DNA from: an uncultured delta proteobacterium
GTDB lineage: Bacteria; Desulfobacterota; Binatia; UBA9968
DNA: 64,000 nt
Reading direction: 5' to 3'
Assembly (NCBI GenBank): GCA_963816145.1
Contig: CAWFJP010000004.1
Location: 512,001 to 576,000, forward strand
Below, piece after piece: positions 1,278-63,580 of the stretch. Both the position numbers and the translations under genes were made by a program. Below the pieces are notes generated by a model that was not told the DNA's origin, did no database searches, and was given only the letters and a program-made list of their open reading frames with translations. How positions within the stretch are numbered: the first letter of the stretch is position 1; each line of letters begins with the position of its first letter.

Positions 1278-1304
1278 AGGGGCAGGTTTCAAACCTGCCC
1301 CTAC
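1278..1304 (-). repeat. GTAG-type REP palindrome
   Basis: Minus strand reads GTAGGGGCAGGTTTGAAACCTGCCCCT; relatives at 6828-6851 and 52561-52586. Confidence 0.75.
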
Positions 1305-1333
1305 ATAAGTTGCGAAAATGTAATTAGCCTTTC

Positions 1334-3619
1334 TTACGCCTTCCCCGCCTCCTTCAACGCCCGCAGCACATTCTCCGGACTGAGCGGCAGCTTGGTCACC
1401 CGCACGCCGGTCGCGTTGAAGATCGCGTTGGCGATGCAGGCCATGGGCGGGACGCAGGCGATTTCGCCGGCGCCTTTGGCGCCGTAGGGGCCGGCGCCGG
1501 GGTAGCCTTCGACCAGCGTGGTTTCGATGCGCGGCATCATGTTGATGGTCGGCATCAGATAGTCGACGAAGCTTGGGTTCAAGGTCCGGCCGTCTTTGTC
1601 GAAGACGACTTGCTCGCACAACGCCTGGCCGATGCTCATCGCGGCGGCGCCTTCGATCTGGCCTTCGGCGGCTGCTCTATGAATCGGCTGGCCGATGTCG
1701 TGGACGGCGACGTATTTTAAAATTTTCACGTTGCCGGTGTCCGGTGCTCGACTTCGACGATGCAGGCGTGGGCCGTGAAGGGCTGGGAGCTGCCGTGGGC
1801 TTTTTCCTCGGCCATCAATGCAAGGTTGTCGCAGTAGCCGCGGCCGATGACTTCGCCGATGACGTTGTGCGCGTCGGTGGCGACGGTGGCGAGAGGGACG
1901 CTTTTCGCCGGCGTGCCTTTGACCCGAATCTGCTTGTCGACGATCTCCAAATCTTCCGGGCTCGCTTCCAGTTTGCCGGCGGCCATTTTGAATAGCTGAT
2001 TGCGCGCGTCGATGGCGGCGAGCCGAGACGCGGTGCCGGAAACCAGGATGCCGCGGCTGCCGACCGTGCCGGCGTCCCATGGACTGGCGTCGGTATCGAC
2101 GTTCGACCACGGTGACATCGGTCACCGGTATGCCGAGCTCTTCGGCGACGATCATTGGAATACCGAAACCGGGGATGGTGCCCATGTCGATCTTGCCGAT
2201 ATGGACCGTCACCGAGCCGTCTTCGTTGACTTTGACGATGGAGCCGCCGCCGGGACCGGCGCTTTCGATCCATGAGCCGGTGGCCAGGCCGATGCCCTGG
2301 TTCTTTTCCAGCTTCACTTTGCCCCAGCCGATTTTCTCCTTGGCGATCTTGATGGTCTCGCCGAGCGAAACATCGCGTAGCTTGGGCACGCCGACGATCT
2401 TATCGCCCGCCTTGGGCATGTTCTTCATGCGGAGTTCCGTTGGGTCCATGCCGAGCTTGGCGGCGATGGAGTCCATATGCGATTCGACAGCGAAGGCCGC
2501 TTGCGGGCCGCCGGGGCCGCGCACCGGGCCGCAGACCTGTTTGTTGGTGTAGACGGTGAAGCCTTCGATGTGGCAGTTGGGCATCAAGTACCAGCCGCCG
2601 AGCATGTTGGTGCAGCGGCCGCCCGCTTGAACGCCGAAGCCCGAATAGCCGCCGGCATCGTAGAAAACTTTACCGGTGCGAGCGACAATGGTGCCGTCTT
2701 TTTTCACGCCGGTCTTGATGTACATGCGCGCACCCGCGCGAATGGTCGTCGAGATGGTTTCCTCAGCCTTATCGAGAACGATCATCACCGCGCGCTTGGT
2801 CTTGATCGCCAACAGGCCGCAGATCGGTTCTACGGCGGCGCTGGAGGTGATGCCGCTGCCCTTGCCGCCGAAACCGCCACCCAAGCCGGTGGAGATGACG
2901 CGAACGTCATTCAATCGCAACCCTAGCATCTTCGCGGTTTCCTGGCGCACCGGGAAGGGCGCCTGGGCGTTGGCCCAGACGGTGAGCCGGCCGTTGGGTT
3001 CCATCTGCGCCGCGGCGATGCGCGGTTCCAAATACTGCGGATGGATCATCTTGGTGTCGTAAACTTCCTCGACTACGAGATCGGCTTCGGACATAGCCTT
3101 GTCGGGATCGCCGACATGGACGACGGCGTGGCCGCAGACATTTTTCATGTCTGCGGGAGCGGTTTTTGGCAGCGGCATGTCGTCATGCAGCACCGGCGCG
3201 GTGGGTTTGGTTGCCTCTTCAGCATCGATGACTACCGGCAGCGGCTCGTAATTGACTTTGATCTTCTTGAGTGCGGCCTTGGCGATGGCCGGGGTATCGG
3301 CGGCGACGGCCGCGACCGGGTCGCCCATGAAACGGACTTTACCGCGCGCGAGGATGTGGCGGTCGATGTAGCTGCGGCCGTAGCGCACATTCGGCGCATC
3401 AGCCGATGTGACCACGGCGTGGACGCCGGGGACTTTCTTTGCTTCGCTGGTGTCGATGCTGACAATTTTCGCGTGGGCGTATTGGCTGCGCAGGATCGCG
3501 CCATGGAGTTGGTCTTTGAGCATCAAGTCGATGCCGTAAACGCCCTTGCCGATGACGCGCTCGATGCCGCCCATTCGGGCGGGGCTGGTGCCGATGAATT
3601 TGAATTCAGCTTTTGCCAT
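1334..3619 (-). CDS. Xanthine dehydrogenase-family molybdopterin-binding large subunit (two compensating frameshifts near 2105 and 1745)
   Basis: GGGFGGKG, RGPGGPQ and GAKGAGE motifs. The family-typical middle part (DTDASPWDAGTVGSR...) lies in the overlapping 1726..2118 frame. Confidence 0.9.
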   Translation of the reverse strand: MAKAEFKFIGTSPARMGGIERVIGKGVYGIDLMLKDQLHGAILRSQYAHAKIVSIDTSEAKKVPGVHAVVTSADAPNVRYGRSYIDRHILARGKVRFMGDPVAAVAADTPAIAKAALKKIKVNYEPLPVVIDAEEATKPTAPVLHDDMPLPKTAPADMKNVCGHAVVHVGDPDKAMSEADLVVEEVYDTKMIHPQYLEPRIAAAQMEPNGRLTVWANAQAPFPVRQETAKMLGLRLNDVRVISTGLGGGFGGKGSGITSSAAVEPICGLLAIKTKRAVMIVLDKAEETISTTIRAGARMYIKTGVKKDGTIVARTGKVFYDAGGYSGFGVQAGGRCTNMLGGWYLMPNCHIEGFTVYTNKQVCGPVRGPGGPQAAFAVESHMDSIAAKLGMDPTELRMKNMPKAGDKIVGVPKLRDVSLGETIKIAKEKIGWGKVKLEKNQGIGLATGSWIESAGPGGGSIVKVNEDGSVTVHIGKIDMGTIPGFGIPMIVAEELGIPVTDVTVVERRYRRQSMGRRHGRQPRHPGFRHRVSARRHRRAQSAIQNGRRQTGSEPGRFGDRRQADSGQRHAGEKRPSRHRRHRRAQRHRRSHRPRLLRQPCIDGRGKSPRQLPALHGPRLHRRSRAPDTGNVKILKYVAVHDIGQPIHRAAAEGQIEGAAAMSIGQALCEQVVFDKDGRTLNPSFVDYLMPTINMMPRIETTLVEGYPGAGPYGAKGAGEIACVPPMACIANAIFNATGVRVTKLPLSPENVLRALKEAGKA

Positions 3620-3649
3620 GACTGGTCTCCTAATCTGCTTAAGAAATTT

Positions 3650-3726
3650 TCCCGCAAAGGCGCAAAGGCGCCAAGGTAAGAAATAAACACTCCTCCGAAC
3701 TTTGCGTCTTTGCGCCTTGGCGGGAG
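3650..3726. repeat. Inverted 9-mer-periodic element (CGCAAAGGCG type)
   Basis: TCCCGCAAAGGCGCAAAGGCGCCAAG ... CTTTGCGTCTTTGCGCCTTGGCGGGA between the S and L subunit genes. Confidence 0.85.
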
Positions 3727-3751
3727 ATCATTTTCTTCTCGGGTTCTTTCC

Positions 3752-6799: not shown

Positions 6800-6968
6800 A
6801 ACCACAAAGAGCACAAAAGGCACAAAATAGGGGCGCAGCATGCTGCGCCCTCGGAGTCGGGACAACAGGCGCAAGGAACACAAGGGCGACAAAGTAAAAA
6901 GCTAATTCACCACTAAGGCATAGAAAATAAATTTCTTTCCTTCGTGTCCTTCGTGCCTTCGTGGTGAA
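6800..6968. repeat. Cluster of ACCACRAAG 9-mer arms with a GTAG-like REP
   Basis: AACCACAAAGAGCACAAAAGGCACAAAA; TAGGGGCGCAGCATGCTGCGCCCT; TTCACCACTAAGGCA ... CTTCGTGTCCTTCGTGCCTTCGTGGTGAA. Confidence 0.75.
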
Positions 6969-8445: not shown

Positions 8446-8484
8446 TCGGGGAAAGTAATTGACGGGTGACATTCTGTGATCCGA

Positions 8485-8722
8485 CCTCTTCCCCCTTGAG
8501 AGACTGTGTCGCAACTGTCATTTCGAGGTGAAGCCGAGAAATCTCTTCTTCATATGTGGCTGAAAACACGAGATCCCTCGCTGCGCTCGGGATGACAAAT
8601 GTGGGGCATTTGCGCATTACGACACAGCCTCCGACGGGGGAAGGCTAGGATGGGGGTCCTGCGCACGTCATTGAAATTGACGGGCACCCCCACCTCAATC
8701 CTCCCCCGTCAAGGGGGAGGAG
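8485..8722. repeat. CCCCC..GGGGG double-hairpin element interrupted by a MITE
   Basis: Matches the uninterrupted copy at 53406-53506 once 8500-8631 is removed. Confidence 0.85.
8500..8631. mobile_element. About 130-bp MITE-like element with 15-bp TIRs carrying a TGTC-REP pair
   Basis: GAGACTGTGTCGCAA ... TTACGACACAGCCTC; the interior is nearly the reverse complement of 29355-29486. Confidence 0.8.
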
Positions 8723-8776: not shown

Positions 8777-10056
8777 ATGATTTCGCGCGAGGAAAACCAA
8801 CTGCTAACTCAAACCGGCGCCGGCACGCCGTGCGGCGAGTTGCTGCGCCGCTACTGGCAGCCGGTGGCGTTATCGGAGGAGTTGAAAGCTGACGAGGCGC
8901 CTTTAGCTGTGACCTTGATGGGCGAAGAATTGGCGATTTTCCGCGACGACAAGGGGCGCGTCGGCGTGCTCGATGCACATTGCTGCCATCGCGGCGCTGA
9001 TTTGACTTACGGTCGCTTAGAGGATGGCGGTCTGCGCTGCATTTACCACGGCTGGTTGTACGACATTAAAGGTAGAATCCTCGAACAACCCGGAGAGCCC
9101 AATGGCGGCGAAAACCGCGATGCGTTTTGCCAGCCGTCGTTTCCGTGTCAGGAATCCGGCGGGGTGATCTTCGCCTATATCGGACCGGGGAGCCGCCGCT
9201 GTTGCCCAACTACGAGTTTCTCCAAGTGCCGGATGACCACCGCTTCGTTTCCAAGATTCATCACTCGTGCAACTACCTGCAGTCCAACGAAGGCAACATC
9301 GATCCGGTGCATCTGTCGTTTTTACATCGCAAGCTGGAGTTGACCGAACTCGACAAGCAACGGCGCGTCACCGGCAGCGAAAGTTCGCCGAATGCTTTAT
9401 TCGGCGCCGATCTGGCGCCGCGCATCGAGTTGGAGCTCACCGATTTCGGCGTGCGAATTTTCACCGTGCGCGATATCGAAGACGAAAAGATTTATTTTCG
9501 CACCTCCAACTTCATCATGCCCAACTTTAGCACCTTCCCCGGGCAAACGGCGGCGGAAGGATATTCGGTCAACTGGCATGTGCCCATCGACGATTACAAT
9601 CACTGGAAATTCGTCATAGTTTTCAGCCGCAAGCGGGCGTTGGTACGCGAAATGATGTTGCGCGGGCGCGACGAATTGACCGCCGACTATCATATGGTAC
9701 GCAACAAGGCGAATCGTTATCTGCAAGACCGCGAGTCGATGAAGAACAAATCGTTCAGCGGTATCGGACATAATTTTCAGGCCCAGGATGCTTGTGTGAT
9801 CGAAGGCGCCGGCGCGATTCAAAATCGTACTAAAGAACATCTGGTGACCTCGGATAAAGCCATCGTCGCGGCGCGCAAGTTGTTGCTCAAGGGGATTCAG
9901 GACGTAAAAGAGGGCCGCGATCCGTTGCATGTCATCCGCGATCCCAAGGCTAACCATTTTTCGCATCTGGCAGTGATCTCCGAGGTGACGCCGAAGGCGG
10001 CGGATATTCGGGCTATCGTGCAGGAAAAGATTAGGCAGCAGAGCGCGATGAGTTAA
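8777..10056 (+). CDS. Rieske non-heme iron oxygenase alpha subunit (Pht3/OphA2/LigXa-like), frameshift near 9190
   Basis: CCHRG..CIYHGW Rieske motif; EGNIDPVHLSFLH and QD mononuclear-iron motifs in the 9127 frame; close paralog of 56626. Confidence 0.9.
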
Positions 10057-10077
10057 ACCAGATGCTTTGTTCTCTCA

Positions 10078-10175
10078 ACCCTCGCCCACGAAGTGGGAGA
10101 GGGAAGGGTGAGGGTCATGGCATCGCTCAAACCGAGCCCTCACCCCGACCCTCTCCCATCGGAATGGGCGAGGGT
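10078..10175. repeat. CCCTC-type double-hairpin element
   Basis: ACCCTCGCCCACGAAGTGGGAGAGGGAAGGGTGAGGG ... CCCTCACCCCGACCCTCTCCCATCGGAATGGGCGAGGGT. Confidence 0.85.
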
Positions 10176-11390: not shown

Positions 11391-11510
11391 GTTCAAGGTT
11401 CAAGGGTTCAAAGTTCAAGGTTCCGGATTGTCTTATTTCTCCATGGGAGACTGTGTCGTCATGCGGAGATCTTTCGTTCCTGTCATCCCGAGCGGCGCGA
11501 GGGAACTCGT
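11391..11510. repeat. GTTCAAG 7-mer array plus partial MITE end and TGTC REP
   Basis: GTTCAAGGTTCAAGGGTTCAAAGTTCAAGGTTC; GAGACTGTGTCGT at 11447; TGTCATCCCGAGCGGCGCGAGGGA. Confidence 0.7.
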
Positions 11511-15262: not shown

Positions 15263-15368
15263 GGCGCCAGGAGTAACGGGTGCAGAAAAAAGCCAGTTGA
15301 GCGTCTCAAGGCGGCGAAAAAAAGTTAATAAATAATTGAGAATGGAGAATGGAATCTTGAATAGACGG

Positions 15369-16490: not shown

Positions 16491-16522
16491 AATGGATAAT
16501 TGAGAATGGAGAATTGAAAATT
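16491..16522 (+). repeat. AATKGAR 7-mer array (also about 15333-15356, 17649-17682, 18813-18985, 20200-20231)
   Basis: AATGGATAATTGAGAATGGAGAATTGAAAATT. Confidence 0.85.
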
Positions 16523-17645: not shown

Positions 17646-17663
17646 GTTAATGGATAATTGAGA

Positions 17664-18811
17664 ATGGAGAATGGAAAATTGAGAAGAAAGGTAGCCGCAG
17701 TGATTGGTTCTGTTTCGACCATCATATTCTTTGGATTAGCGATCGATGTCTTGGCGGCGCAGGTGAAGCCCGCCTGGCAGCAGGAATGGGAGAAAACCCT
17801 CGAAGCAGCCAAGAAGGAAGGCCAGGTCGTTGTTTACATCAGCGGCTATGAAGCGATTCTGCCTGACTTCGAGAAGGAGTTCCCTGAGATCAAAGTGACC
17901 GCCGTTACCGGGCGGGGTAATCAGCTGGGGCCGCGCTTGTTGGCGGAGCGGCGCGCGGAAAAGTTTATCGCCGATGTTTCCAGCACCGGTGCCAATCCCA
18001 ACTATCAGCAGTATTCACGCCGACCAAGGCTCTCGATCCGATCAAGCCGGCGTTGATCCTGCCGGAAGTCACGGATCAGACCAAGTGGTATTTGAAGAAG
18101 CACCAGTATTCCGATCCGGAAGGCCAATATGTTTTCAACTACGTCGGCTCGGCGACCTATGGCTCGATTCACTACAACACCAAGATCGTCGAGTCGAAGG
18201 AGTTCAAGTCCTATTGGGATCTGCTCAGTCCCAAGTGGAAAGGCAAGATCGCCATCCGCGATATCCGTGAGGCCGGCCCGGGCGCCGGTAATACCCGGTT
18301 CTTTTATTACAATTCCGAGCTAGGGCCCGGGTTTATTCGCAAGCTGTTTGGCGAGATGGATGCGACGTTGTTCCGTGACTTTCGCCAGGGGCCGGATTGG
18401 CTGGCGACGGGGAAGTATGCCATCTGCTTTTTTTGCGATGTCGATGTGTTGAAGCGCCAAGGCCTGCCGGTGGACACCTTCGGGCCGAAAGTCTTCAAAG
18501 AAGGTGGCGGGTTGGTGCAGCAGTTCGGCACTTTGGCCCTGCTCAATCGCGCGCCCCATCCCAACGCCGCCAAGGTGTTCATCAACTGGCTGCTCTCGCG
18601 CAACGGCCAGATCGCGCTGCAAAAACGAACCATGACCGCGGAAAGCCCGGCCGATTCCCTGCGCATCGATATTCCCAAAGAAGAAGTGCCCTACGACAAT
18701 CGCCGATTGGAAGGCATCAAATATCTCGACACCGGCAAGCCCGAGTGGATCGAGATGAAGCCGATCATCGATGTGGTGAACGAAGCGCTCAAGGCGGCGG
18801 GGAAGAGTTAA
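17664..18811 (+). CDS. Solute-binding protein, paralog 5 (frameshift near 18017)
   Basis: ORFs 17658..18056 and 18053..18811 join into one full-length paralog of 3 and 4. Confidence 0.85.
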
Positions 18812-18998
18812 CGGATAATTGAGAATGGATAATGGAGAATTGAAAATTATCCGGTCCCATACGACTTGAAAGGAGGAAGGTTAAATGTATAAGAAGGAAG
18901 TGGCAGGTATGAAGAAATTCTCGCAATTGGAAGACATAAGGATAATTGAGAATGGATAATGGAGAATTGAAAATTATCCGGTCCCGTCCCCACTTTGA

Positions 18999-19129
18999 GA
19001 TACTGTGTCGCAATGCGCGAAAGCCTCAATCATGTCATCTCGAACGAAGTGAGAGATCTTGCATTTCAGCCACATCCGAAGAAAAGATGTCTCGCCTCCG
19101 ACTCGAAATGACAATTGCGACACAGTTTC
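18999..19129. mobile_element. MITE-like element, diverged copy, inside a degenerate CCCC..GGG hairpin
   Basis: GATACTGTGTCGCAA ... TTGCGACACAGTTTC followed by TCGACGGGAGAAGGTTAG. Confidence 0.75.
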
Positions 19130-19200
19130 TCGACGGGAGAAGGTTAGAATAGGGGGCCTGCGCGCCAGTGAAAAATTTCGCACTCCTCTTGGAAAGACCA

Positions 19201-20187: not shown

Positions 20188-20263
20188 AGCGCTGAGGGAC
20201 AATTGAGAATGGATAATGGAGAATTGATAATGCTCGGGCGCTGGCAATCTGAAGGGACTCATA

Positions 20264-21701
20264 ATGGGAAGTGAAAGTTCACTAGCTTACAAAGACCTGC
20301 GCGGTTATCTCGACGCGGCTGACAAGCTCGGCGAACTGCGTCGGGTTAACGGCGCGGATTGGGATCTGGAGCTCGGCGCGATTACCGAAGTGGCGGCGCG
20401 GGCGACGCATCCGAAAGTGGTTCTGTTCGACGACATCAAGGGCTATCCGACGGGGTTTCGCGTCGTTACCAATCCGGTTTGTTCGGCGGCCACGACGGCG
20501 CTCGCTTTCGGACTCGATCCGAAGTTGACCGGTATGGATATTATTCGCGCCTGGAAAGAGCGGCTCGGCAAGCAGACGCCGATCAGGCCCGTGGAAGTTG
20601 GCAACGGGCCGATTACCGAGAACTGCGACAGCGGCGACCAGGTCGATTTGCTCAAGTTCCCGACGCCGCGTTGGCATGAAGAAGACGGCGGTCGTTATAT
20701 CGGCACCGGCTGCATGGTGATCATGGAAGATCCCGACGGCAAGTGGACCAACGTCGGCACTTACCGTGTCTGTGTGCATGACAAGAACACGCTCGGCATC
20801 TGGATTTCGCCGGGCAAGCATGGACGGCTGATCCGGGAAAAATATTGGGCCCAGGGCAAACCCTGTCCGGTGGTGATTAGTTTCGGCCAAGATCCGATTC
20901 TCGCCAAAGTGGCGAGTTGGTACGAAGCCTGGGGTGTGTCGGAGTTGGAAATTGCCGGCTGGCTGTTCGGCGCGCCGGTTAAATATATTCACGGCAAGGA
21001 AACCGGTCTGCCGATTCCCGCGACTTCCGAGCTTAGCCATCGAAGGTTTCATCGTGCCGCCGACCGAAGACAGCCGGCCGGAAGGTCCGTTCGGCGAATG
21101 GACCGGCTACTACGCTTCGGGCACGCGCAACGAGCCGGTGGTCAAAGTCAAAAATGTTTTTTACCGCAACGATCCGATCATCTTCGGCATGCCGCCGGGC
21201 ATCTCCGGCAAATCGGTGCCGCTGAGCGCCGCTAACGTGTGGCTCGCCCTCGAAAAAGCCGGCGTCACCGACGTCCAGGGCGTGTGGGAATATCAGACGC
21301 GCTACATCACGGCGATCTCGATCAAACAAAAATACGGCGGCCACGCCAAGCGCACGGCGATGGCGATGTTAGGCTCGACCTACGGCTACCACCGGCGTTT
21401 CGTCATTATCGTCGATGACGATGTCGATCCATCGAACATCGACGATGTTATGTGGGCCCTGGCCACCCGCTGCGATCCGGCGACGGCGATCAATGTCATC
21501 ACCGACGCCTGGAGCACACCGCTCGACCCGCGCATCACGCCCGACGCCCGGGCGGCGCGCAACTTCACCAATTCGGTCGCGATCATCAACGCCTGCCAGC
21601 CGTACCATTGGAAAGATCAATATGCCAAGACTTGCTACTTTCCTGAGGAAACGCGGCGGGCGGCGGCGGCGAAGTGGAAGGACGTGCTGAAATTGGACTG
21701 A
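20264..21701 (+). CDS. UbiD-family (de)carboxylase (frameshift near 21035)
   Basis: DGGRYIGT and NVGTYR in the first frame; EGPFGEWTGYY in the 20934 frame. Confidence 0.88.
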
Positions 21702-21703
21702 TT

Positions 21704-21887
21704 CCATTTTGGATTTTCGATTTTGGTTTTGGATTGCGGGAGGAAACGTGAAACGATTTTGGATGTTAGTCTGTGAGACCGCTATTGGAATCTGGCACAG
21801 AGGACGCGCAGACGCGGTACAAATTCTGGCAGTGGCTCCGGACATCTTTCCGATAATCTAAAATCCAAAATCCAAAATCGAAAATGG
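21704..21887. repeat. Inverted pair of AATCYAA/AATCGAA 7-mer arrays
   Basis: CCATTTTGGATTTTCGATTTTGGTTTTGGATT ... AATCTAAAATCCAAAATCCAAAATCGAAAATGG. Confidence 0.85.
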
Positions 21888-23196: not shown

Positions 23197-24196
23197 ATGA
23201 ACGGGAAATTTCTTGGTTTCTTGGTTCAAGGGCTTTTTATCGCGGCGAGTGTTTTTGGCGCTTGCCTCTTCCCGCTGAGCTCTTCGATACATGCGGCGCA
23301 GAAGGACTTGCAAAAACTGACGGTCGGCTACACTCCGATCGCCGGCGCGTCGCTGCCGTTCTTCATCGCCGTCGAGGAAAAGATCTTTCAAAAATACGGC
23401 TATGAGATTTCCCCGGTATTCATGGGCGGCTCGCCGCTGATCAATTCGGCGATCCTCGCCGGAGAATTTCCGCATCGGCTACACCGGCGGCGGCGCGGTG
23501 ATCTCGAGCCGGCTCAGCGGCAGCGATCTGATCGCCATCGCATCGCCGTTGCCGGTGCTCACCATCGATGGCTGGTCAAAGCCTGAGATTAAATCCATCA
23601 GCGATTTGCGGGGCAAAAGAGTCGGAGTAACGCGATTCGGCGCCTCGAGTTATTTCTCGGCGTTGTCGATGCTGGAGTCCGGCGGGGTGAAACCCAGCGA
23701 GGTGACCTTTATTCAAAACGGCGGCGTTGGCGAGTCCTACGCAGCCCTAACCGGCGGCCGGGTGGATGTCTGCATGATCGGATATCCCTTCGGTTTGAAT
23801 GCCAAGAATGCCGGTTTTAACCTGCTCTTCCGACCGTCGCAGACCGAATACGGTCTGTTTCCCACCGCGGTCATTGCCGCGCGCGAGTCGTGGTTGAAGG
23901 AAGCCAAAAACCACAAAGTCGCGGTGGATTTTCTACGCGCGCTCAATGAAGGCCAGCAGCTCGCCAGGGAAAACGCCGCGGCATCTAAGCGGGCCTTGAA
24001 AAAATTCACTCGGGTTGACGACGATGCGTCGTTGCAGGGTAGTTTCGAATACTACAGGGACGCTTTTCCCAGCTCCATCAGGGTGATCGAGAAAGCCATG
24101 GCCAACGCGCTGAAGTTTGTCGAACACCCCAAGGCCAAGGGCGCCGACGTCAGGCAATCGTTCGACAACAGCTATGTCGACGAGATGACCAAATGA
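23197..24196 (+). CDS. NMT1/SsuA-type substrate-binding protein (frameshift near 23473)
   Basis: Signal peptide, LRGKRVGVTRFG; ORFs 23197 and 23498 join. Confidence 0.85.
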
Positions 24197-25367: not shown

Positions 25368-25815
25368 TAACCACAAAGGGCCTAGCGCGGCACAGCCGCA
25401 ACCAAAGGAAAAATTCAGAATCGGATATTAACCGCAAAGGGCGCAAAAAACGCAAAATTCGGAAAGGACAACTCACCACGAAGGACACGAAGATCACGAA
25501 GAAAGAGACTTAAATTCCGAACCTTCGTGTCCTTCGCGCCTTCGTGGTGAACACTTCTTATACGCATGAAGCTGCTCCTGTCGAAGACGCTAAAATTTGC
25601 GCTAGCCGCGAAAACAAAGACCACATAGAAAGAAGATTAGGATTCGGAAAATTGGCCGCAAAGAACGCAAAAAGTCCGATGATCTCCCGCAAGGGTGCTA
25701 AGGATGAAGCTTGTCATTTCGAACGGAGAGAGAAATCCGTCTTCGATCCCTCGCATTCGCTCGGGATGACAGGCCTCCGCCCTGTCACTTGGCGTCTTTG
25801 CGCCTTTGCGGGAGA
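25368..25815. repeat. Dense repeat cluster: 9-mer arms, a complete ACCACGAAG element, and a CGCAAAG element carrying a TGTC-REP pair
   Basis: CTCACCACGAAGGACACGAAGATCACGAAG ... CTTCGTGTCCTTCGCGCCTTCGTGGTGA (25473-25550); composite at 25682-25815. Confidence 0.85.
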
Positions 25816-25841
25816 ATTATCCGGTTTGATTGGAGGAATAC

Positions 25842-26789: not shown

Positions 26790-26833
26790 GTTCAAACCGT
26801 TCAAACGCTGCGCTCCGTTCAAGCCGTTCAAGT
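26790..26833 (+). repeat. GTTCMARNC 9-mer array (also 35753-35788, 45356-45392, 45663-45696, 52498-52531)
   Basis: GTTCAAACCGTTCAAACGCTGCGCTCCGTTCAAGCCGTTCAAG. Confidence 0.8.
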
Positions 26834-26873
26834 CGTTGACGGAGTGAATCGGGAACGGACCGACCGTTCCGTT

Positions 26874-29285: not shown

Positions 29286-29354
29286 GAATTCGAGATGCGT
29301 ATCAAGTTTATATGATACACGAAGCGGCAGCAATTCAGACACCTTCCCCATCGA

Positions 29355-29486: not shown

Positions 29487-29560
29487 CGAGGGGGAGGATT
29501 AAAGAATTAGAGGTTGAACCAACTTCAGTTTGATCACTTATTGGTCCCAAGGAGCGCGAT

Positions 29561-35745: not shown

Positions 35746-35819
35746 GAAAACTCGTTCCAATCGTTCAAACCGTTCAAGCCGTTCAAAACGTGGATGGAAG
35801 AAGAATCGGATTTGGAGTA

Positions 35820-35958: not shown

Positions 35959-35997
35959 GAATATCCGGTGCCTTGTCGACAATAAGGAGACAGGCTT

Positions 35998-37223: not shown

Positions 37224-37492
37224 TTCACTACGAAGTGTCCATGAGCTTACGCTCGTCTACAGAGCATGAAATTGCAGGCCCCTGCACCCCCCCGGTTCGT
37301 CATGCCGGCGCAGGCCGGCATCCAGGGGACGGAGGGGGGATGGATACCGGCTTTCGCCGGTATGACGGAAGCCTTATGCCAATTCGTCGGCCAGATCGTA
37401 CTTGCGCATGTATTTTCTCAGAAGGACACGAAGAGCACGAAGTTCGGAACCTTAAACATCCGAACCCTTCGCGGCCTTCGTGAGCTTCGTGG
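37224..37492. repeat. ACCACGAAG element interrupted by an about 190-bp insert containing a CGTC-REP pair
   Basis: TTCACTACGAA-GTGTCC ... GGACAC-GAAGAGCACGAAG ... CTTCGCGGCCTTCGTGAGCTTCGTGG; REPs at 37298-37367. Confidence 0.7.
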
Positions 37493-37550
37493 CGCGGTGG
37501 ATTTTCTCATGGCCCGCGACTAATGCAGCCAATTTGATGGGACCAAAACG

Positions 37551-39578: not shown

Positions 39579-39593
39579 ATGCAAGAATTCAAG

Positions 39594-39675
39594 CTCACCA
39601 CGAAGGCACGAAGGACACGAAGGTTTCGAAAGAATAATAATCCGGACTTCGTGCTCTTCGTGTCCTTCGTGGTGA
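39594..39675. repeat. Intact ACCACGAAG inverted element
   Basis: CTCACCACGAAGGCACGAAGGACACGAAG ... CTTCGTGCTCTTCGTGTCCTTCGTGGTGA. Confidence 0.85.
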
Positions 39676-39694
39676 AGAATCATGGAGACTACTT

Positions 39695-40930: not shown

Positions 40931-40932
40931 CC

Positions 40933-41049
40933 GTTCCAGTTGTTCCAAACGTTCCAATCGTTCCAGCCCCCACCTCTTTCCTCCCCCGCGTCGCGGGGGA
41001 GGATGAAGGAGAGGGATGAAACAACTGGAACCTTTGGAACGATTGAAAC
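40933..41049. repeat. Inverted 9-mer arrays enclosing a CCCCC..GGGGG hairpin
   Basis: GTTCCAGTTGTTCCAAACGTTCCAATCGTTCCAG-[CCCCACCTCTTTCCTCCCCCGCGTCGCGGGGGAGG...]-TGAAACAACTGGAACCTTTGGAACGATTGAAAC. Confidence 0.85.
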
Positions 41050-41068
41050 CTAATCTTTGGAATCGAAC

Positions 41069-42238: not shown

Positions 42239-42269
42239 CATTGCACAGTTGCAGCCGACTCTCGGATTA

Positions 42270-42380
42270 TCTCGCGCAAAGACGCAAAGCCCGCAAAGGC
42301 TGGAAAATAACGGTAATAAACTCTCCAAGATAATTCATCTCTTCCTTCCGAACTTGGCGTCTTTGCGCCTTTGCGGGAGA
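42270..42380. repeat. CGCAAAG inverted element
   Basis: TCTCGCGCAAAGACGCAAAGCCCGCAAAG ... TCCGAACTTGGCGTCTTTGCGCCTTTGCGGGAGA. Confidence 0.85.
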
Positions 42381-42479
42381 AATTTCCGAATCCGAGTTAA
42401 CCGGTGCAAAGCCAAAATCCTCTTGATCTCCAACGCTTCACGCGATATTAACTCGCAGACTCTTTAGCGGGTTATAGCG

Positions 42480-44237: not shown

Positions 44238-45356
44238 TTGGTGAGTTTCTTACGCATTCAAAATCTCTATAAGACTTTTGGCCAGGTTGCGGCGGTCAAT
44301 CGCATCAATCTCGACATTGCCGAGGGTGAGTTTTTCACCATGCTCGGCTCCAGCGGTTGCGGCAAGACGACGACACTCCGCATGATCGGCGGCTTGGAAA
44401 AACCCGACAGCGGCGAGATCCATCTCGGCGAACAGTGTCTGGTGGCGCCGGAAAAAGGGCTGTTCATCAAACCGGAAAAGCGCAACATGGGCATGGTGTT
44501 TCAGTCCTATGCCCTGTGGCCGCATATGACGGTATTCGAAAACGTCGCCTATCCGCTCAAGTTGCGCGGCATCAAAGGCGCCGAAGCGAGCAAGAAGGTC
44601 GAAGACGTGCTCGCCCTCGTGGGCTTGGCCGGCTTGGGCGAGCGGCCGGCGCCGGCGCTCTCCGGCGGCCAGCAACAGCGCGTCGCTTTGGCGCGCGCTT
44701 TGGTGTTCTCGCCGCGGGTGTTGCTGTTGGATGAGCCCTTGAGCAACCTCGATGCCCAATTGCGTGAGGAGATGCGCCGGGAGCTGAAGTCGCTGCAGCA
44801 GCGCGTGAATATCACCGTGATCTTTGTCACCCATGACCAGATCGAAGCGCTGAGTTTGTCCGATCGCATTGCGATCATGAAGTTCGGCGTACTCGAACAG
44901 GTCGGCACGCCGGAGGATGTGTATTTTCGCCCGGCGACGCCATTTGTGCGCGACTTCCTCGGCAAGACCTTCCTCTTGCCCGGCAAGATCTCCGTGTCGA
45001 CTGAACAAACCATCGGCGTCAGTGTCCAGGGCAGCAGCACAGCGTCGTTGAGTTTGCCGCGCAGTAAACTGATTGGCGCGGCCAACGGTTTGTTGACGGT
45101 TGGCCAGGGCGTTACCGTGGCGATCCGCCCGGAGCAGGTCAATTTGACCGCCGGGCGTCAGGACGGGCGCGCCAATATGGTCGAGGCGACTTTGCAAACG
45201 GTGCAGTTTCTCGGCGACCGCTACGAGTACACGGTTACCTTGGGCGGGGAAACCCGAGTGTTGGCTTCGCCGGAGCCGCAGCATCTCAAGTCGGGGGACC
45301 GGGTTTATCTCGAACTCAAGCCCGAAGGCATGACGCTGTGGCCAACTGAAAAATAG
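44238..45356 (+). CDS. ABC ATP-binding protein (FbpC/PotA-like, TOBE domain)
   Basis: GSSGCGKT, LSGGQQQR and LLLDEP motifs. Confidence 0.95.
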   Translation: MVSFLRIQNLYKTFGQVAAVNRINLDIAEGEFFTMLGSSGCGKTTTLRMIGGLEKPDSGEIHLGEQCLVAPEKGLFIKPEKRNMGMVFQSYALWPHMTVFENVAYPLKLRGIKGAEASKKVEDVLALVGLAGLGERPAPALSGGQQQRVALARALVFSPRVLLLDEPLSNLDAQLREEMRRELKSLQQRVNITVIFVTHDQIEALSLSDRIAIMKFGVLEQVGTPEDVYFRPATPFVRDFLGKTFLLPGKISVSTEQTIGVSVQGSSTASLSLPRSKLIGAANGLLTVGQGVTVAIRPEQVNLTAGRQDGRANMVEATLQTVQFLGDRYEYTVTLGGETRVLASPEPQHLKSGDRVYLELKPEGMTLWPTEK

Positions 45357-45467
45357 TTCAAGCCGTTCAAATCGTTTAAAAGGTTCAAGCCGTCGGAATG
45401 CGCCGGCATGCCGCCCTGACAATTGAAATTCGGTATTCAAGAAGCCTGGACGGCAGGTCACTCGTAT

Positions 45468-45635
45468 ATGAAATCGCTGCTCGGATCTGTTGCTGCCGGA
45501 TTGATTATCGCGACGGGATCGATGGTCGGCGATTACCAAACGGCTGCCACCGCTGCGGTTGATACGGAGTGGGCTCGCACCGTCGAGGCGGCGACAAAAG
45601 AAGGCAAGGTCAGCGTCTTTCTCGACCAGCGCTAA
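45468..45635 (+). pseudogene. 5' fragment of a twelfth solute-binding paralog
   Basis: Signal peptide plus EWARTVEAATKEGKVSVF, then a stop; the rest is absent. Confidence 0.7.
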
Positions 45636-45708
45636 CACATCGAAGCGGTTCGAGCCTCCGAGTGGAACTGCTGGAACCCTTGGAACGCTTGGAACCCAAG
45701 ATTGCTTT

Positions 45709-49377: not shown

Positions 49378-49427
49378 AGGATTATTCGTTCAAGGTTCAA
49401 GGGTCAAAGTTCAAAATTCAGAAAGAT

Positions 49428-50471: not shown

Positions 50472-50681
50472 AAATTATCCTCCTGATTTTTCTGAGATCA
50501 TATCTACTACAGGCGGCATAAACGGACAACAGCCGTTCCGGTCAAGAATGGTTCAAGGTTCAAAAGTTCAAGGTTCAAGGTCGGATTTTGGATTCAGCGA
50601 TGAATTGACTGATGCGCCGGATATCGACGATCCGAGCTCCGATTGAACCTGGAACTTTTGAACCTTGAACGGATTGAGGTT

Positions 50682-51633: not shown

Positions 51634-51791
51634 GGCGATTTCCGTATAGGAACCGGTCCGGTCTGTCAATCAATCGGTTGGTTCGTTGAATGTCTATTGC
51701 CCGCGTGCTACTTAGCCGATGAGTCTGGTGAGGGGGAACGGCAATCCAAAATCGAAAATCGAAAATCCAAAATGGTCGAGGCGATGCCATA

Positions 51792-52496: not shown

Positions 52497-52640
52497 GGTT
52501 CCAAAGGTTCCAGTCGTTCCAGAAGTTCCAGTGGTTTTGACCTTGGTTCAAGATTTATTTTGTAGGGGCGACCGGCGGTCGCCCTCCGGAGGCCGACAAT
52601 CGAAAATCCAAAAGCAGCCCCGCAGACCAAAATCCAAAAT

Positions 52641-53405: not shown

Positions 53406-53506
53406 TCCTTCCCCCTCGACGGGGGAAGGTTAGGATGGGGGTGCTGCGCACGCCGTATAGATTGATTGGCACCCCCACCTCTGTCCTCCCCCATCGAGGG
53501 GGAGGA
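53406..53506. repeat. Uninterrupted CCCCC..GGGGG double-hairpin element (empty-site reference)
   Basis: TTCCCCCTCGACGGGGGAAGGTTAGGATGGGGGTG ... CACCCCCACCTCTGTCCTCCCCCATCGAGGGGGAGG. Confidence 0.88.
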
Positions 53507-55944: not shown

Positions 55945-56026
55945 CGTCATTCCGGTGAAAACCGGAATCCAGGTTCGTTTTCCGTTCAAAGGCAAAGACT
56001 GGACACCGGCTTTCGCCGGTGTGACG
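55945..56026. repeat. CGTC-REP inverted doublet upstream of the GIY-YIG gene
   Basis: CGTCATTCCGGTGAAAACCGGAATCCAG ... CTGGACACCGGCTTTCGCCGGTGTGACG. Confidence 0.9.
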
Positions 56027-56116
56027 ATGGGATGCGGGACTCTGGGATTTTTTCTTACACTGCCGGGATTTGTCAATTCCCTCGGATCGAAATAGTATGG
56101 CTACGGTGTTCGACCA

Positions 56117-56400
56117 GTGAAGCAACCCTGCGTTTACATTTTGGCAAGTAGACGCAATGGAACTTTGTATGCGGGTGTGACATCCGATTTGATGCAGCGG
56201 ATTTGGCAGCACAGGAACGACCAGGTTGAAGGATTTACGAAGCGCTACGGTGCACAAATTAGTCTGGTATGAAATCTGCGGTCAATGGAGTTGCAATTGC
56301 GCGCGAAAAAGCGATCAAGGAATGGAAACGGACTTGGAAGATCGAGCTGATTGAAAAAGCAAATCCCGAGTGGCGCGACTTGTATGCTGAACTGCTTTGA
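56117..56400 (+). pseudogene. Small GIY-YIG nuclease (YhbQ/UPF0213-like), frameshifted (not in ORF track)
   Basis: MKQPCVYILASRRNGTLYAGVTSDLMQRIWQHRNDQVEGFTKRYG / HKLVWYE / AIAREKAIKEWKRTWKIELIEKANPEWRDLYAELL*, with small deletions at about 56250-56295. Confidence 0.88.
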
Positions 56401-56401
56401 G

Positions 56402-56589
56402 TGGACACCGGCTTTCGCCGGTGTGACGAAGAAGGGACCGATGTTAGGTGTCGGGGTGCTGAATGTCAGGATGCCGACGCAGCTAGGCCACACCGTCCGT
56501 CATTCCGGCGCAGGCCGGAATCCAGGTTGGGTGCGGGGGCGTGGCGAATTAGACGCAGAAGATGGACACCGGCTTCCGCCGGTGTGACG
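56402..56589. repeat. Three CGTC-REP units downstream of the GIY-YIG gene
   Basis: TGGACACCGGCTTTCGCCGGTGTGACG directly after the stop; doublet at 56498-56589. Confidence 0.9.
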
Positions 56590-57946: not shown

Positions 57947-58015
57947 GAGATTTCTCGCTGCGCTCGAAATGACAGATGTGAGTCTCTGTCATCCCGAACG
58001 AAGAGAGGGATCTCG
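57947..58015. repeat. Free-standing TGTC-REP pair (opposite relative orientation to the MITE-borne pairs)
   Basis: AGATTTCTCGCTGCGCTCGAAATGACA ... TGTCATCCCGAACGAAGAGAGGGATCTC. Confidence 0.8.
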
Positions 58016-59043: not shown

Positions 59044-59161
59044 GTTCCAACTGTTCCAGCCGTTCCAATGGTTCCAACTGTTTGGGCCCATGCGACGCGG
59101 GCGAACTGACGATTGGAACTTGAACTGAGCGAAGCGGTTGAACGACTTGAACGTTTTGAAC
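59044..59161. repeat. Inverted pair of 9-mer arrays
   Basis: GTTCCAACTGTTCCAGCCGTTCCAATGGTTCCAAC ... TTGAACGACTTGAACGTTTTGAAC. Confidence 0.8.
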
Positions 59162-61283: not shown

Positions 61284-61475
61284 ATGACAAGTTCTGCAAA
61301 GGCGATTTTGGATTCCTTCGATGCGCTTCCTGATACCGAGAAACGGGACGTTGTGCGTGCCATACTCCAGCGCGCCCTGCGCTTGGATTCACCGCCTCTT
61401 ACTGATGAAGAGCTGGTGGCACAAGCCGAAGATATTTTTCTCGAGTTAGACAAGCGCGAAGCCGCGGATGGCTAA
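61284..61475 (+). CDS. Putative antitoxin
   Basis: GGAGG RBS, 63 aa with an acidic C-terminus, stop overlaps the toxin start. Confidence 0.7.
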   Translation: MTSSAKAILDSFDALPDTEKRDVVRAILQRALRLDSPPLTDEELVAQAEDIFLELDKREAADG

Positions 61476-61900
61476 AGCAAATCGCGGCGAAGTTTGGATC
61501 GTCGACTTGGGTTTGGCCGCTAACTCCGTCCTTGTTTGGTTCTCAGTGTTCCTTTTTCCGATCAAGAACGCTCACTTAATACAGCAGTTGCTCATACTAC
61601 GAGTCCTCGGGGTGGCGATTTGAAGTCACAGTGCGCGCGATGTTTCTAAAAGCGGGTGTCTTCGATGCGCAGAATCTCGTGACCATCCCAGAAGCCAGAT
61701 TGATTCGGCGCGTCGGTGCGCTTCGAGCGGAAGATCTGAAATCGGTGGAAGCCTCGGTACGAGCTTGGCTTGGCCTTCAATCGGCGCCGCCCCCCAATAT
61801 TGTTGCTCCACTGTGCAGTCGATGCCCCGCGAAGGCGAACCGAGTACTCCACTTGATCGCTTCATGCTGTGGCGCGCAGCATGCGTGGGTAGCCCAGTAA
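61468..61900 (+). CDS. PemK/MazF-family toxin, frameshifted
   Basis: MAKANRGEVWIVDLG.. / RPCLVLS / ..FDAQNLVTIPEARLIRRVGAL..VEASVRAWLGL; 3' end uncertain. Confidence 0.8.
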
Positions 61901-61977
61901 CTCACAAGTAAAGATGCGACTCTGATGGCGCTGCTGATGGCGCTATTCAGAGACTACCGGCTCTACATTGGAAGAAA

Positions 61978-62211
61978 GGGGTCAGACTTTTACGTCTCGA
62001 CTTTCTTCGTCAGTTTCTCAATCTCCCGCCGCATACCTTCATCCGCTTTCATACGCCCGCTCAACCGGCCAATCAAAGTCCCCAGCGTCGCCGCGTCCCG
62101 CGCGAAATACCGCGCCACTTCGCTTAGAGTCGAACGATCAAGGTCAAATCTGTGTCTTTGATCTTCATCCAGCTTCAATCTACGAAATATCAAAAGTAAA
62201 GATGCGACTCT
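61978..62211 (-). mobile_element. Internally deleted Y1/RAYT-type transposase element with GGGGTCAG-type ends
   Basis: C-terminal HTH-like remnant STLSEVARYFARDAATL...KKVET* directly followed by AAGTCTGACCCC; the other end AGAGTCGCATCTTTAC is an imperfect inverted match. Confidence 0.55.
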
Positions 62212-62309
62212 AATTGCCTGCTCTTGACTACCGCGGACAGGCAAAGGAGAATGCCCGCGCTGGAGCAAAGAGCCGGCAAACTATCTTCTCATGAGCTGAG
62301 GGAGCGGGT

Positions 62310-63500
62310 ATGAGGGACAACATGCGCGGCGCGGCCGCTATCGTCGGGATTGGCGAGCTGAAGCCAGAGCGGACGCGGCCGGGCCGCGATGCGATGAGCT
62401 TGCTGGCTGAGGCGGCGTATCTTGCGATTCAAGATGCTGGGCTGACAAAAGCGGACATCGACGGGATGATCCTGGAAGAGGGCATGACCCCGACCGGGAG
62501 CGGCTACAACCCGAAGATGGCCGAATACATGGGCATCTACCCAACCTTCGCCACCGGCTGTGATGCGCAAGGCGCGGCCGGAGTCACGATGGCGCTGCAG
62601 GCGGCTGCCTACATCAACGCGGGCTTGTGTGACTACGTGCTCTGCGGCATGAGTGCCGCGATAGACGGCTCGCGGCCCCGACGCCCAGCTGGGCCAGGTC
62701 ACACCGAGACGGCTACCTCTGAGTTCGCCGCACCCTTCGGCCCGACCGTGGGGGCGAACGGCTGGTACGCCATGATTGCCAAGCGCTACGAGAAGCTGTA
62801 CGGCGCTACCGTGGAGAAGCGCGCCAAGATCAGCGTGGACCTGCGCTACAACGCCAACCACAATCCGATGGCCATCTGGCACGACGTGCCGATTACGGTC
62901 GACGACGTGGTTAACTCGCGCATCGTGGCAGATCCACTTCATTTATTGGAATGCGTCATGCCCTGCGCCGGGGCTTGCGCGTTCATCGTGACCCGGGCGG
63001 ACATCGCGCGAGGTATGCGCCATAAGCCAGCCTACGTGCTCGGCGGCGCCAACGGCGTGTCGCGCAGCAACCTCACGCACGTCGGCGAGATCACCATCTC
63101 CCCAGTGGGTCGGGCCGCGCGAAAAGCGTTCGCCATGTCGGGCTACGGCCCGTCCGATGTCCAGGTTATGGAGATTTACGACTCATTCACCATCACCGTG
63201 ATGTGTGAGCTGGAAGAGTCCGGCTTCTGCCCGAAGGGCACCGCTGGCGACTGGGTTCAGGAGCACGATTTGACCTTTAAAGGCGATAAGCCACTGAACA
63301 CGCATGGCGGTCAGCTCTCCTATGGCCAGGCGTCAACCGCGGGTGGCTGTGCCCAGGTCACCGAGGCGGTGCGCCAGATCCGTCGCGACGCCGGCGAGCA
63401 CCAGGTACCGGGTCCTACCGATTTGGTCTACGTGACAGGCTCCGGCGGCACCTTCTCCCAGCAGTCGGCGCTGCTGCTAGCGAGCGGCGCAGCACTGTAG
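62310..63500 (+). CDS. Thiolase-family protein (SCP-x/Ltp2-like)
   Basis: PLHLLEC, EIYDSFT and NTHGGQLS motifs. Confidence 0.9.
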   Translation: MRDNMRGAAAIVGIGELKPERTRPGRDAMSLLAEAAYLAIQDAGLTKADIDGMILEEGMTPTGSGYNPKMAEYMGIYPTFATGCDAQGAAGVTMALQAAAYINAGLCDYVLCGMSAAIDGSRPRRPAGPGHTETATSEFAAPFGPTVGANGWYAMIAKRYEKLYGATVEKRAKISVDLRYNANHNPMAIWHDVPITVDDVVNSRIVADPLHLLECVMPCAGACAFIVTRADIARGMRHKPAYVLGGANGVSRSNLTHVGEITISPVGRAARKAFAMSGYGPSDVQVMEIYDSFTITVMCELEESGFCPKGTAGDWVQEHDLTFKGDKPLNTHGGQLSYGQASTAGGCAQVTEAVRQIRRDAGEHQVPGPTDLVYVTGSGGTFSQQSALLLASGAAL

Positions 63501-63580
63501 GGCCGCACTCCTGTCATGCTGAGCCCGCGGGCGAAGCATCCGTAAACCCGAAAAGCCCCAAACACGAAGGAGTCACCGAG

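Follow-up and report, generated by a model that had tools for sequence, protein, structure and literature searches.

Mosaic intergenic repeats are known as bacterial interspersed mosaic elements (BIME) in Escherichia coli and as Neisseria intergenic mosaic elements (NIME) in Neisseria. Here we compare with described systems the short repeats found in the spacers of a 64,000-nt stretch of DNA from an uncultured delta proteobacterium of the Binatia (assembly GCA_963816145.1, contig CAWFJP010000004.1, positions 512,001 to 576,000), called the window below. In the passages of Di Nocera et al. (2013, PMC3733652) on which we draw, repetitive extragenic palindromes (REPs) are sorted into GTAG- and CGTC-tagged superfamilies, with TGTC as a variant tag; head-to-head dimers are usual, sites downstream of genes are preferred, REP dimers within longer palindromes are known from three species, and NIME clusters are mentioned. 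The same passages, with parts of bioRxiv 10.1101/279083, describe TIRYT genes, which encode Y1 transposases whose C-terminal domain is DnaA_C-like, as having inverted repeats with a GGGGWSAS signature. REPINs and REP-associated tyrosine transposases (RAYTs) are the subject of the relevant parts of Bertels and Rainey (2011, PMC3116915). The excerpts used of Chenal et al. (2025, PMC11893778) describe GIY-YIG nucleases of the Ssn family, which cut single-stranded DNA beside hairpins named NTS or SRM (Ssn-related motif); 71% of Ssn homologues have the motif in their flanks, 42% on both sides. The CGTC-tagged REPs and the Neisseria dRS3 are the equivalents of these SRM/NTS.

We read the spacers of the window as a dense BIME/NIME-like mosaic of short non-coding, mostly palindromic repeats whose families have spread as DNA, and we give this reading a probability of about 0.55. 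As in BIME and NIME, several short repeat families that are unrelated to one another share spacers, and their arrangements recur; the window differs by its roughly ten families, its strict concentric nesting and its arms made of tandem 7-9-mers. Much of this is already described, namely the SRM/Ssn pairing, the tagged REPs and their dimers, REP dimers in palindromes and TIRYT, and the pattern is real and largely ordinary. Apart from these stand the array-armed palindromes, which form the outer shells of the nests.

Tagged hairpins and their enzyme genes

The families were read from tandem-repeat and inverted-repeat scans together with direct reading of every spacer, and the chance level was taken as the mean of 100 first-order Markov simulations of the window. 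An earlier model-made reading of the letters of this DNA (the sequence-only reading) had held that most spacers carry repeats, and on our curated gene map 32 of the 43 spacers of at least 30 nt do so. Elements cover 3,187 of 8,554 spacer bases (37%, equal to 5% of the window), and 60 of the 62 element segments listed lie wholly within spacers. The families named in that reading are present where it placed them, and the outer coordinates agree as well, the first element being a GTAG-tagged REP hairpin (1280-1304, minus strand, 9-bp stem, 29 nt past the CoxL stop codon) and the last a single TGTC-type hairpin (63512-63540, plus strand). Every family stands well above simulated chance: CGTC hairpins 9 vs 0.01, TGTC hairpins 13 vs 0.08, CCCC..GGGG hairpins 9 vs 0.14, CGCAAAG arrays 7 vs 0.42 and CTGTGTCGYAA inverted-repeat ends 6 vs 0.03, while the CACGAAG (6), GTTCAA 7-mer (5), GTTCMA 9-mer (8), AATGGAG (6) and AATCCAA (2) arrays had simulated counts of 0. 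The palindromic elements form long, very stable predicted hairpins (z -3.8 to -9.3 relative to shuffled sequences); for the single arrays no structure at all is predicted (minimum free energy 0).

The nine CGTC units form four head-to-head doublets (30853-30938, 37299-37366, 55945-56026 and 56498-56589) and one single hairpin (56401-56428, minus strand), all in spacers. The published degenerate SRM motif matches seven of these nine units, none of the 13 TGTC units and one intragenic site, compared with 0.39 matches per simulated window. Its matches surround an ssnA-like GIY-YIG gene (56096-56400, plus strand): one lies upstream at 55999-56026 and one abuts the stop codon at 56401-56428, with further matches at 55945 and at 56498, the latter being the one fitting unit of its doublet. 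The N-terminal piece of the gene matches Pfam GIY-YIG (E 1e-7), and three pieces spanning about 94 codons align in order to residues 2-47 (70% identity), 49-53 and 60-94 (51%) of a 94-aa Neisseria homologue, which is likewise flanked by CGTC-type hairpins. The reading frame is not intact, the pieces lying in three frames, which means two frameshifts, possibly from sequencing error. A tblastn search of a plasmid collection found GIY-YIG homologues in 22 records. The homologue flanks from eight taxa bear hairpins of like design, with the SRM motif in the flanks in five and on both sides in four, in agreement with the published 71% and 42%.

The window units share with the Ssn/SRM system a CGTCAT head, a stem starting with AT, a loop of 4-6 nt and a CCAG-type tail, a prevalence of head-to-head doublets, and a motif on both sides of a gene of about 94 codons. 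They differ by a CCGG instead of a CCCGC stem core, by the two frameshifts in the gene, by one doublet lying inside a MITE-like inverted repeat, and by a host that is an uncultured lineage unrelated to Neisseria. We thus show, as judged from sequence, that the CGTC hairpins are the published SRM, and the locus is a predicted, degraded member of the known Ssn/SRM system, whose motifs, in published work, small GIY-YIG nucleases bind and cut in single-stranded form. The GIY-YIG gene had been singled out beforehand as the only candidate cognate enzyme, and the CGTC hairpins do have a GIY-YIG nuclease as a partner, given the published pairing and the SRM-gene-SRM layout of the window and of the plasmid homologues. 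To the Ssn/SRM pairing this adds a new host as well as a new variant of the stem, and it shows that SRM doublets can ride in other elements. In our literature search no paper joined "GIY-YIG" with "repetitive extragenic palindromic". Among the plasmids, Azospirillum lipoferum NC_016623.1 (locus L132, 560-1090) has a GIY-YIG (Ssn-like) gene with hairpin doublets on either side, between sufB and sufC, which looks like an insertion into an operon spacer.

The 13 TGTC units, also all in spacers and with imperfect stems, make up six doublets (five head-to-head, one tail-to-tail) and one single hairpin. Five of the six doublets join a TTTCGA-type with a CCCGA-type unit, and the sixth (19033-19113) a CTCGA-type with a TTTCGA-type unit. 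The tail-to-tail doublet (57949-58012) has no surrounding carrier. The GTAG REPs of the sequence-only reading are present, but only as three singletons that differ in stem sequence (1280-1304, 52562-52584 and an ATAG variant at 6827-6850). The window hairpins resemble the tagged REPs in being tagged, extragenic, downstream of genes and in inverted doublets, and differ in that the TGTC stems are imperfect and the units mostly TTTCGA/CCCGA pairs; both the GTAG and the TGTC hairpins appear to fit the published tagged-REP superfamilies. They differ from the REPIN-RAYT system in that the three GTAG singletons have no adjoining RAYT. No RAYT gene flanked by GTAG hairpins was found in the window, where the sole RAYT-like sequence is a 46-codon remnant, of the type associated with terminal inverted repeats (TIR) and without an adjoining GTAG hairpin.

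For this remnant (61975-62130, minus strand), a language-model look-up gave a weak lead to a DnaA_C-like domain in the minus-strand open reading frame (ORF) 61993-62280, and a search among longer proteins then yielded 20 relatives, most of them of 307 residues with Y1_Tnp, often together with Bac_DnaA_C, and some named RayT by one source. The surviving part corresponds to residues 262-307 (61993-62130; 91% identity over 46 residues). An end motif containing GGGGTCAG (61975-61993), in agreement with the GGGGWSAS signature of TIRYT inverted repeats, adjoins its stop codon, and an Iodobacter homologue has GGGGTCAG in its 26-nt inverted ends. The alignment shows this predicted coding sequence to be a RAYT/TIRYT tyrosine-transposase gene reduced to its last 46 codons, without the catalytic part and without a second inverted repeat. 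It thus resembles TIRtrons/TIRYT by its match to 307-aa Y1_Tnp plus Bac_DnaA_C proteins and by the adjoining end motif, and differs from them in keeping 46 of 307 codons, one inverted end only and no other end copy within the window. The one transposase remnant noticed from the letters is therefore real and belongs to the REP-associated RAYT/TIRYT family, but it is not tied to any window repeat family. A tie of that kind was rejected, the end sequence having no further copy within the window and GGGGWSAS not being enriched there (4 found vs 12 expected), and a tie between the DnaA_C-like domain and the 9-mer arrays was considered, with no evidence found. Two direct 28-nt copies (61902-61929 and 62190-62217; 89% identical, 288 nt apart) bracket the remnant, and a 12-nt tandem duplication follows the first. 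As an example of mosaic intergenic repeats the window, from an uncultured lineage, is unusually dense, and the two known types of REP-associated enzyme both occur in it as degraded copies, next to each other.

Composites and array-armed palindromes

The sequence-only reading had described nesting as directional, and one order was indeed found in all eight readable relations, with REP doublets innermost and no reverse case seen. A TGTC doublet lies within each of the three copies of a candidate miniature transposable element with inverted repeats (MITE), MITE-A, and each copy lies in the loop of a G5 (CCCCC..GGGGG) hairpin. The first composite (8484-8722) is a G5 doublet whose left hairpin loop holds MITE-A (ends 8504-8514 and 8617-8627) with the TGTC doublet 8516-8597; the second (18985-19165) and third (29340-29510) contain the TGTC doublets 19033-19113 and 29389-29470. 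A TGTC doublet lies within CGCAAAG arms in two cases (25712-25771 in 25655-25825, and 35856-35915 in 35828-35967). At 30764-31030, G5 arms enclose MITE-B, which encloses the CGTC doublet 30853-30938. GTTCMA 9-mer arms (40932-41051; -64.1 kcal/mol, z -8.0) enclose a G5 hairpin (40966-41012), and CACAAAG/CACGAAG arms (6800-6966) enclose the GTAG-like, ATAG-tagged hairpin 6827-6850.

The MITE-A copies measure about 125-140 nt and have CTGTGTCGYAA ends; a remnant (11447-11506, plus strand) keeps half a MITE-A end and one TGTC hairpin. MITE-B is a single 175-nt copy with 22-nt inverted ends (30814-30835 and 30967-30988). The marks of a MITE were found: terminal inverted repeats, no coding capacity, a length of 50-500 bp and several copies. 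The MITE-B ends can be read with a TA or CTAG duplication, and MITE-A possibly with a GA duplication in the G5 loop. No parent insertion sequence was present in the window, and a search of plasmids gave no match. In the copies at 8484-8643 and 29340-29510 the MITE-A interior (the TGTC doublet with an asymmetric segment of 20 nt) has opposite orientations, while neither the outermost ends nor the surrounding G5 hairpin are turned. Recombination between inverted arms would suit this, and so would an insertion at a hairpin apex that can occur in either orientation. The CGCAAAG arms with their TGTC doublet have identical left and right junctions in the two window copies and in at least five copies from other metagenome-assembled genomes (MAGs). 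Since the same junctions recur in other MAGs, this composite was inherited or copied as one unit, and the idea that the elements parasitise one another is not supported by it: it behaves as a single unit.

The arms of many elements are tandem arrays. CGCAAAG palindromes also stand on their own at 3646-3729 (arms of three 8-mers; -44.8 kcal/mol, z -6.6) and 42266-42385, and their measured period is 8, not the 9 first assigned to them. CACGAAG palindromes lie at 25470-25552, 37418-37500 and 39592-39677 (-46.5 kcal/mol, z -8.8), and GTTCAAG palindromes at 33505-33582 and 50550-50670 (28-nt arms, 96% complementary; -58.9 kcal/mol, z -9.3). In a BLAST search of plasmids, MITE-A and the CACGAAG palindrome had no match, the GTTCAAG palindrome had marginal 31-nt matches only, and the intact G5 doublet (53407-53505; a CCCCC-TCGA-GGGGG hairpin in each of its two inverted arms, which measure about 35 nt; -64.2 kcal/mol, z -6.2) gave two short arm matches, in Iodobacter and Leptolinea. 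The Iodobacter fluviatilis plasmid NZ_CP025783.1 (locus L138, 1500-1610) has a G5 doublet 88% identical to the window arm over 42 nt, about 150 nt upstream of an IS200/IS605 tnpA gene and between two DUF4132 ORFs; the same plasmid also bears a TIRYT-like transposase with GGGGTCAG inverted ends.

The sequence-only reading had allowed that the families might prove to be confined to the window. For CGCAAAG this is not the case. A species-representative genome collection was scanned with an 18-mer from a CGCAAAG arm, and at least 128 stretches were found, with about 17 chance matches expected in the whole collection by an arithmetic estimate. Flanks were read for 80 loci, and the comparison loci fetched amount to 1.27 Mb, of which 1.0 Mb is from Acidobacteriota. 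Most of the matches listed are from MAGs of Pyrinomonadaceae and other Acidobacteriota, and the other labels among them include Syntrophobacter, Deltaproteobacteria, Thermodesulfobacteriota, Bacteroidota, Verrucomicrobia, Kiritimatiellae, Planctomycetota, and Alpha- and Gammaproteobacteria. The odd-phylum loci inspected are mostly true arrays with an inverted partner, and the arm consensus is nearly alike across phyla. The Acidobacteriota loci hold 251 CGCAAAG arrays, and the other families of the window are essentially absent from them. Across the loci, paired and unpaired arrays number 91 and 128; their loops measure 0-187 nt and are unrelated in sequence. Eighteen of the 43 loops of at least 40 nt are structured (z <= -2), some of them being further array palindromes with other units. 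CGCAAAG arrays were thus seen nested with CACCAAT-type, ACGAAAA-type and CTCTGCGT-type palindromes in L044 (about 9890-10130), L089 (about 190-430) and L098 (305-484), which are loci of Verrucomicrobia, Kiritimatiellae and Pyrinomonadaceae; array-armed palindromes come in many flavours.

Related genomes differ in these elements. The comparison of orthologous spacers that had been proposed was run in Acidobacteriota: in a pair at 93% identity one element is conserved in place and one is present in one species only, and a more distant pair adds one more present/absent case. By crude gene calling, 63 of 141 CGCAAAG midpoints fall in called ORFs, and the others lie in tandem (52), convergent (18) and divergent (8) spacers; compared with the shares of spacer bases (61%, 22% and 18%), divergent spacers are at most weakly depleted. 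The unit strings CGCAAAG, CACGAAG and GTTCMA were not found in the literature text searched. The array-armed palindromes would form a further class, without an identified enzyme, in which the arms are conserved across phyla and the centres are free to vary. It is conceivable, if doubtful, that palindromes with tandem 7-9-mer arms (CGCAAAG, CACGAAG and GTTCMA here, other units in Verrucomicrobia, Kiritimatiellae and Acidobacteriota) are one widespread gene-less class, whose arms, not the interior, are recognised and conserved, which a conserved host function instead of element-specific transposases maintains or spreads, and whose hairpin apex serves as a landing pad for REP doublets and MITEs. 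An apex that is a standard landing pad would account for the strict nesting order. A single mechanism behind these palindromes, if there is one, would open a new chapter in the shaping of bacterial spacers.

How the repeats may have spread

In the mosaic reading, the hairpin families would spread at the DNA level, a step that we infer from the sequence. Hairpins would survive at the least harmful sites, directly past stop codons and away from the start signals of the next gene. Layering would follow from hairpins already in place, whose apex offers a safe, perhaps preferred, landing site, and a composite once formed would then be copied whole. The AATGGAG arrays would be copied along with tandem gene duplication, supplying a ribosome-binding site and a start codon.

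Several results weigh against this view. All three MITE-A copies occupy the same G5 loop position, which the copying of a single composite explains no less well than targeted insertion. None of the 13 TGTC units fits the published SRM motif. The window has no intact enzyme gene; as both of its enzyme genes are degraded, nothing encoded here can mobilise anything. The present/absent sites in Acidobacteriota show neither clean boundaries nor target-site duplications. When the 563 ORFs lying no more than 250 nt from CGCAAAG elements (76 loci) were clustered, no cluster across loci exceeded 4 ORFs, from 3 loci; the 1.27 Mb of fetched loci contained no homologue of GIY-YIG or RAYT. Both searches are of low power. 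Finally, single arrays sit tightly at stop codons and lack predicted structure, which would also suit protein-binding sites. An enzyme for each family, as first supposed, is not borne out: no ORF family is enriched beside CGCAAAG, and among 115 stop-to-stop spacer frames the only domain matches were GIY-YIG and PemK, with no transposase domain in these frames apart from the two enzyme remnants. NCBIfam had no match for 10 unexplained ORFs. As a whole, the sequence-only reading stands as regards the known nuclease partner of one family and the presence of a transposase remnant of REP type; the enzyme per family and the mutual parasitism are not supported, and the AATGGAG arrays are better explained by gene duplication.

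The placement of arrays bears on a rival explanation, which we consider unlikely, in which arrays and palindromes are host regulatory elements under selection, acting as operator-like binding arrays for some abundant protein that binds DNA or RNA, or as intercistronic RNA structures that adjust how strongly adjacent cistrons are expressed relative to each other, and owing their spread chiefly to recombination and gene duplication. The GTTCMA arrays and palindromes are found nearer to stop codons than under uniform spacer placement (Fisher combined p = 3.8e-5, 11 cases). About half of the GTTCMA arrays, contrary to what had been read, are single, without an inverted partner. Single arrays start 0-21 nt past stop codons, and eight of nine read GTTCMA on the sense strand of the preceding gene, a bias that is inseparable from replication-strand bias because nearly all genes share one strand. 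Thus 9-mer arrays lie 6 nt past a stop codon at 26790-26837 and at 35752-35791, at the ABC ATPase stop codon itself at 45356-45393 (all plus strand), and 11 nt past the stop of a minus-strand MFS gene, in the sense orientation of that gene, at 45663-45697 (minus strand). Another (59044-59082, in 59044-59161) lies 5 nt past a stop codon and has a partial inverted partner at 59112-59161. Single GTTCAAG 7-mer arrays follow stop codons by 5 nt at 11391-11423 and by 21 nt at 32229-32262 (plus strand); the one at 49388-49420 (plus strand), between two minus-strand genes, is the only single array antisense to the gene upstream.

Other arrays abut start codons, which likewise speaks for regulation. 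Six plus-strand AATGGAG arrays lie before a gene for a solute-binding protein (SBP; 15334-15354), across a stop-to-start spacer with a GGAG site and TTG start codon (16491-16520), with the start codon inside the last unit (17649-17685), at 18812-18854 and its local duplicate 18939-18981, and upstream of a UbiD gene (20197-20232). They fill the stop-to-start gap and supply the next gene with its GGAG site and TTG start. The ends of AATCCAA arrays, too, coincide with gene starts: 7-mer arms (21702-21735 and 21855-21887, element 21702-21887) around 125 nt end at an SBP gene start, an array at 51743-51773 (plus strand) lies directly upstream of an aldolase II gene start, and at 52498-52640 (plus strand) a GTTCMA 9-mer array (52498-52536), the GTAG REP 52562-52584 and AATCCAA-like units run up to a second aldolase II start. 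Four AATGGAG arrays are spaced by 1157, 1158 and 1168 nt, matching the periods of 1158 and 1166 nt of the tandem SBP paralogues, and the family is confined to 15.3-20.3 kb, with none in 1.27 Mb of other loci. The AATGGAG family tracks tandem gene duplication and forms a translation start region, and we infer that the start-codon arrays, AATGGAG and AATCCAA, are not transposed elements.

There are precedents for a regulatory role. In the passages used, Aklujkar et al. (2009, PMC2700814) put forward tandem heptamer families in Geobacter metallireducens as sites for regulators, and MacGregor (2015, PMC4679880) proposed that TAACTGA repeats directly upstream of start codons are translational regulator sites. 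Both systems, as those passages present them, share with the window intergenic arrays of 4-5 tandem heptamers; some Geobacter families form hairpin pairs according to the supplement legends of PMC2700814, and the TAACTGA repeats (Beggiatoaceae, cyanobacteria, Bacteroidetes) lie a few nt upstream of start codons, like AATGGAG and AATCCAA here. They differ in their unit sequences, and in the portions compared (for PMC2700814, the paper without its supplementary alignments) neither paper has nesting or CGCAAAG, CACGAAG or GTTCMA units. The wholly unstructured single arrays are what a single-strand binding platform would look like, and the nearly constant CGCAAAG consensus across phyla also suits selection. 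However, of 21 elements only 6 have the sense strand as the more stable one (Wilcoxon p 0.09, pointing away from selection for sense-RNA structure), and an Rfam scan of the whole window gave no family at gathering score. The regulatory explanation is further opposed by the gain and loss of CGCAAAG elements between related species, by flanking genes of unrelated function, by palindrome centres that are unconstrained (loops of 0-187 nt) and by the strand bias, which replication could equally produce.

A second explanation, which we hold to be distinctly improbable, dispenses with dedicated enzymes: slippage of short motifs during replication would give rise to the arrays, intramolecular template switching at hairpins would extend the palindromes outward and perfect them, and the layers would record the order of growth, not insertions. 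It accounts for arms that are tandem repeats of variable unit number with periods of 7, 8 or 9, for single arrays being as frequent as paired ones, and for CGCAAAG elements having no enzyme gene beside them. The inverted MITE-A interior between constant outer ends is what inverted-arm recombination would yield. The AATGGAG arrays also share CGGATAATT and AATTATCCG with the outer ends of CGCAAAG elements, which suggests local terminal expansion. Yet outward growth would copy unique flanks, whereas the outer arms are repeated families with the same consensus in unrelated genomes. Nor is there a sign of hairpin-templated correction, since arm identity is 0.78 within elements vs 0.74 between them and the own partner arm is the best match in 8 of 93 cases; concerted evolution of the arms was rejected on the same figures, same-element arms being barely more alike than others. 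The CGTC family, moreover, has a demonstrated nuclease partner in the portions used of PMC11893778. Chance matches or assembly artefacts are practically negligible as an explanation, since, although several frameshifted genes indicate that the sequence quality may be imperfect, simulated sequences gave essentially no matches and the elements recur in independently assembled MAGs and in finished plasmids.

Gene setting and further elements

The window has a G+C content of about 57%, and its gene content is a cluster for uptake and catabolism of aromatic compounds. About 11 paralogous SBPs and seven LigXa-type Rieske oxygenases are encoded, together with UbiD decarboxylases, cupins, LigB, CoxLMS-type molybdenum dehydrogenase subunits, and ABC and MFS transporters. 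Between 5 and 45 kb nearly every gene lies on the plus strand. At 11428-39578, LigXa-type Rieske oxygenases lie interspersed among eleven SBP paralogues, of which three make up a tandem series of 1158-1166 nt; this suggests a large cluster, expanded recently, for taking up and demethylating aromatic compounds. The gene map was curated by hand, with starts shifted downstream of repeats where a signal peptide and a ribosome-binding site were evident. Simple ORF finding had mis-called at least five gene starts, pushing them 5' into upstream repeats; repeats of this sort stretch predicted ORFs at their 5' ends, which matters for annotation.

Six genes are broken across frames: a Rieske oxygenase (8777-10056), an SBP (17658-18811), UbiD (20264-21690), NMT1 (23197-24196), GIY-YIG (56096-56400) and a MazF-like gene (61476-61900). 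These breaks reflect either indel errors of the assembly or an accumulation of pseudogenes and regional decay. The last of these genes follows a small antitoxin-like ORF (61284-61475) and encodes a PemK/MazF-like toxin whose N-terminal and C-terminal (61580-61897) pieces do not share a frame (Pfam PemK match, E 0.002). At the other edge of the window, the minus-strand ORF 1-1254, of more than 418 residues, open at the edge and of lower G+C content (52%), had no match in Pfam or NCBIfam.

Among the remaining elements, a group of unclassified repeat units at 25369-25460 (CACAAAG, CGCAAAA and a CTAG-tagged hairpin) is common to loci L028 and L053. The motif that bounds the AATGGAG arrays at 18812-18854 and 18939-18981 (CGGATAATT and AATTATCCG) also ends CGCAAAG elements (GGGAGAATTATCCGG; 25815-25829 and 35955-35970), and the AATGGAG heptamer array may have grown from such an element terminus. 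At 45468-45637, the N-terminal fragment of an SBP paralogue, with a signal peptide and the conserved EW..TVEAA.KEG motif followed by a stop codon, is stranded between two convergent GTTCMA 9-mer arrays.

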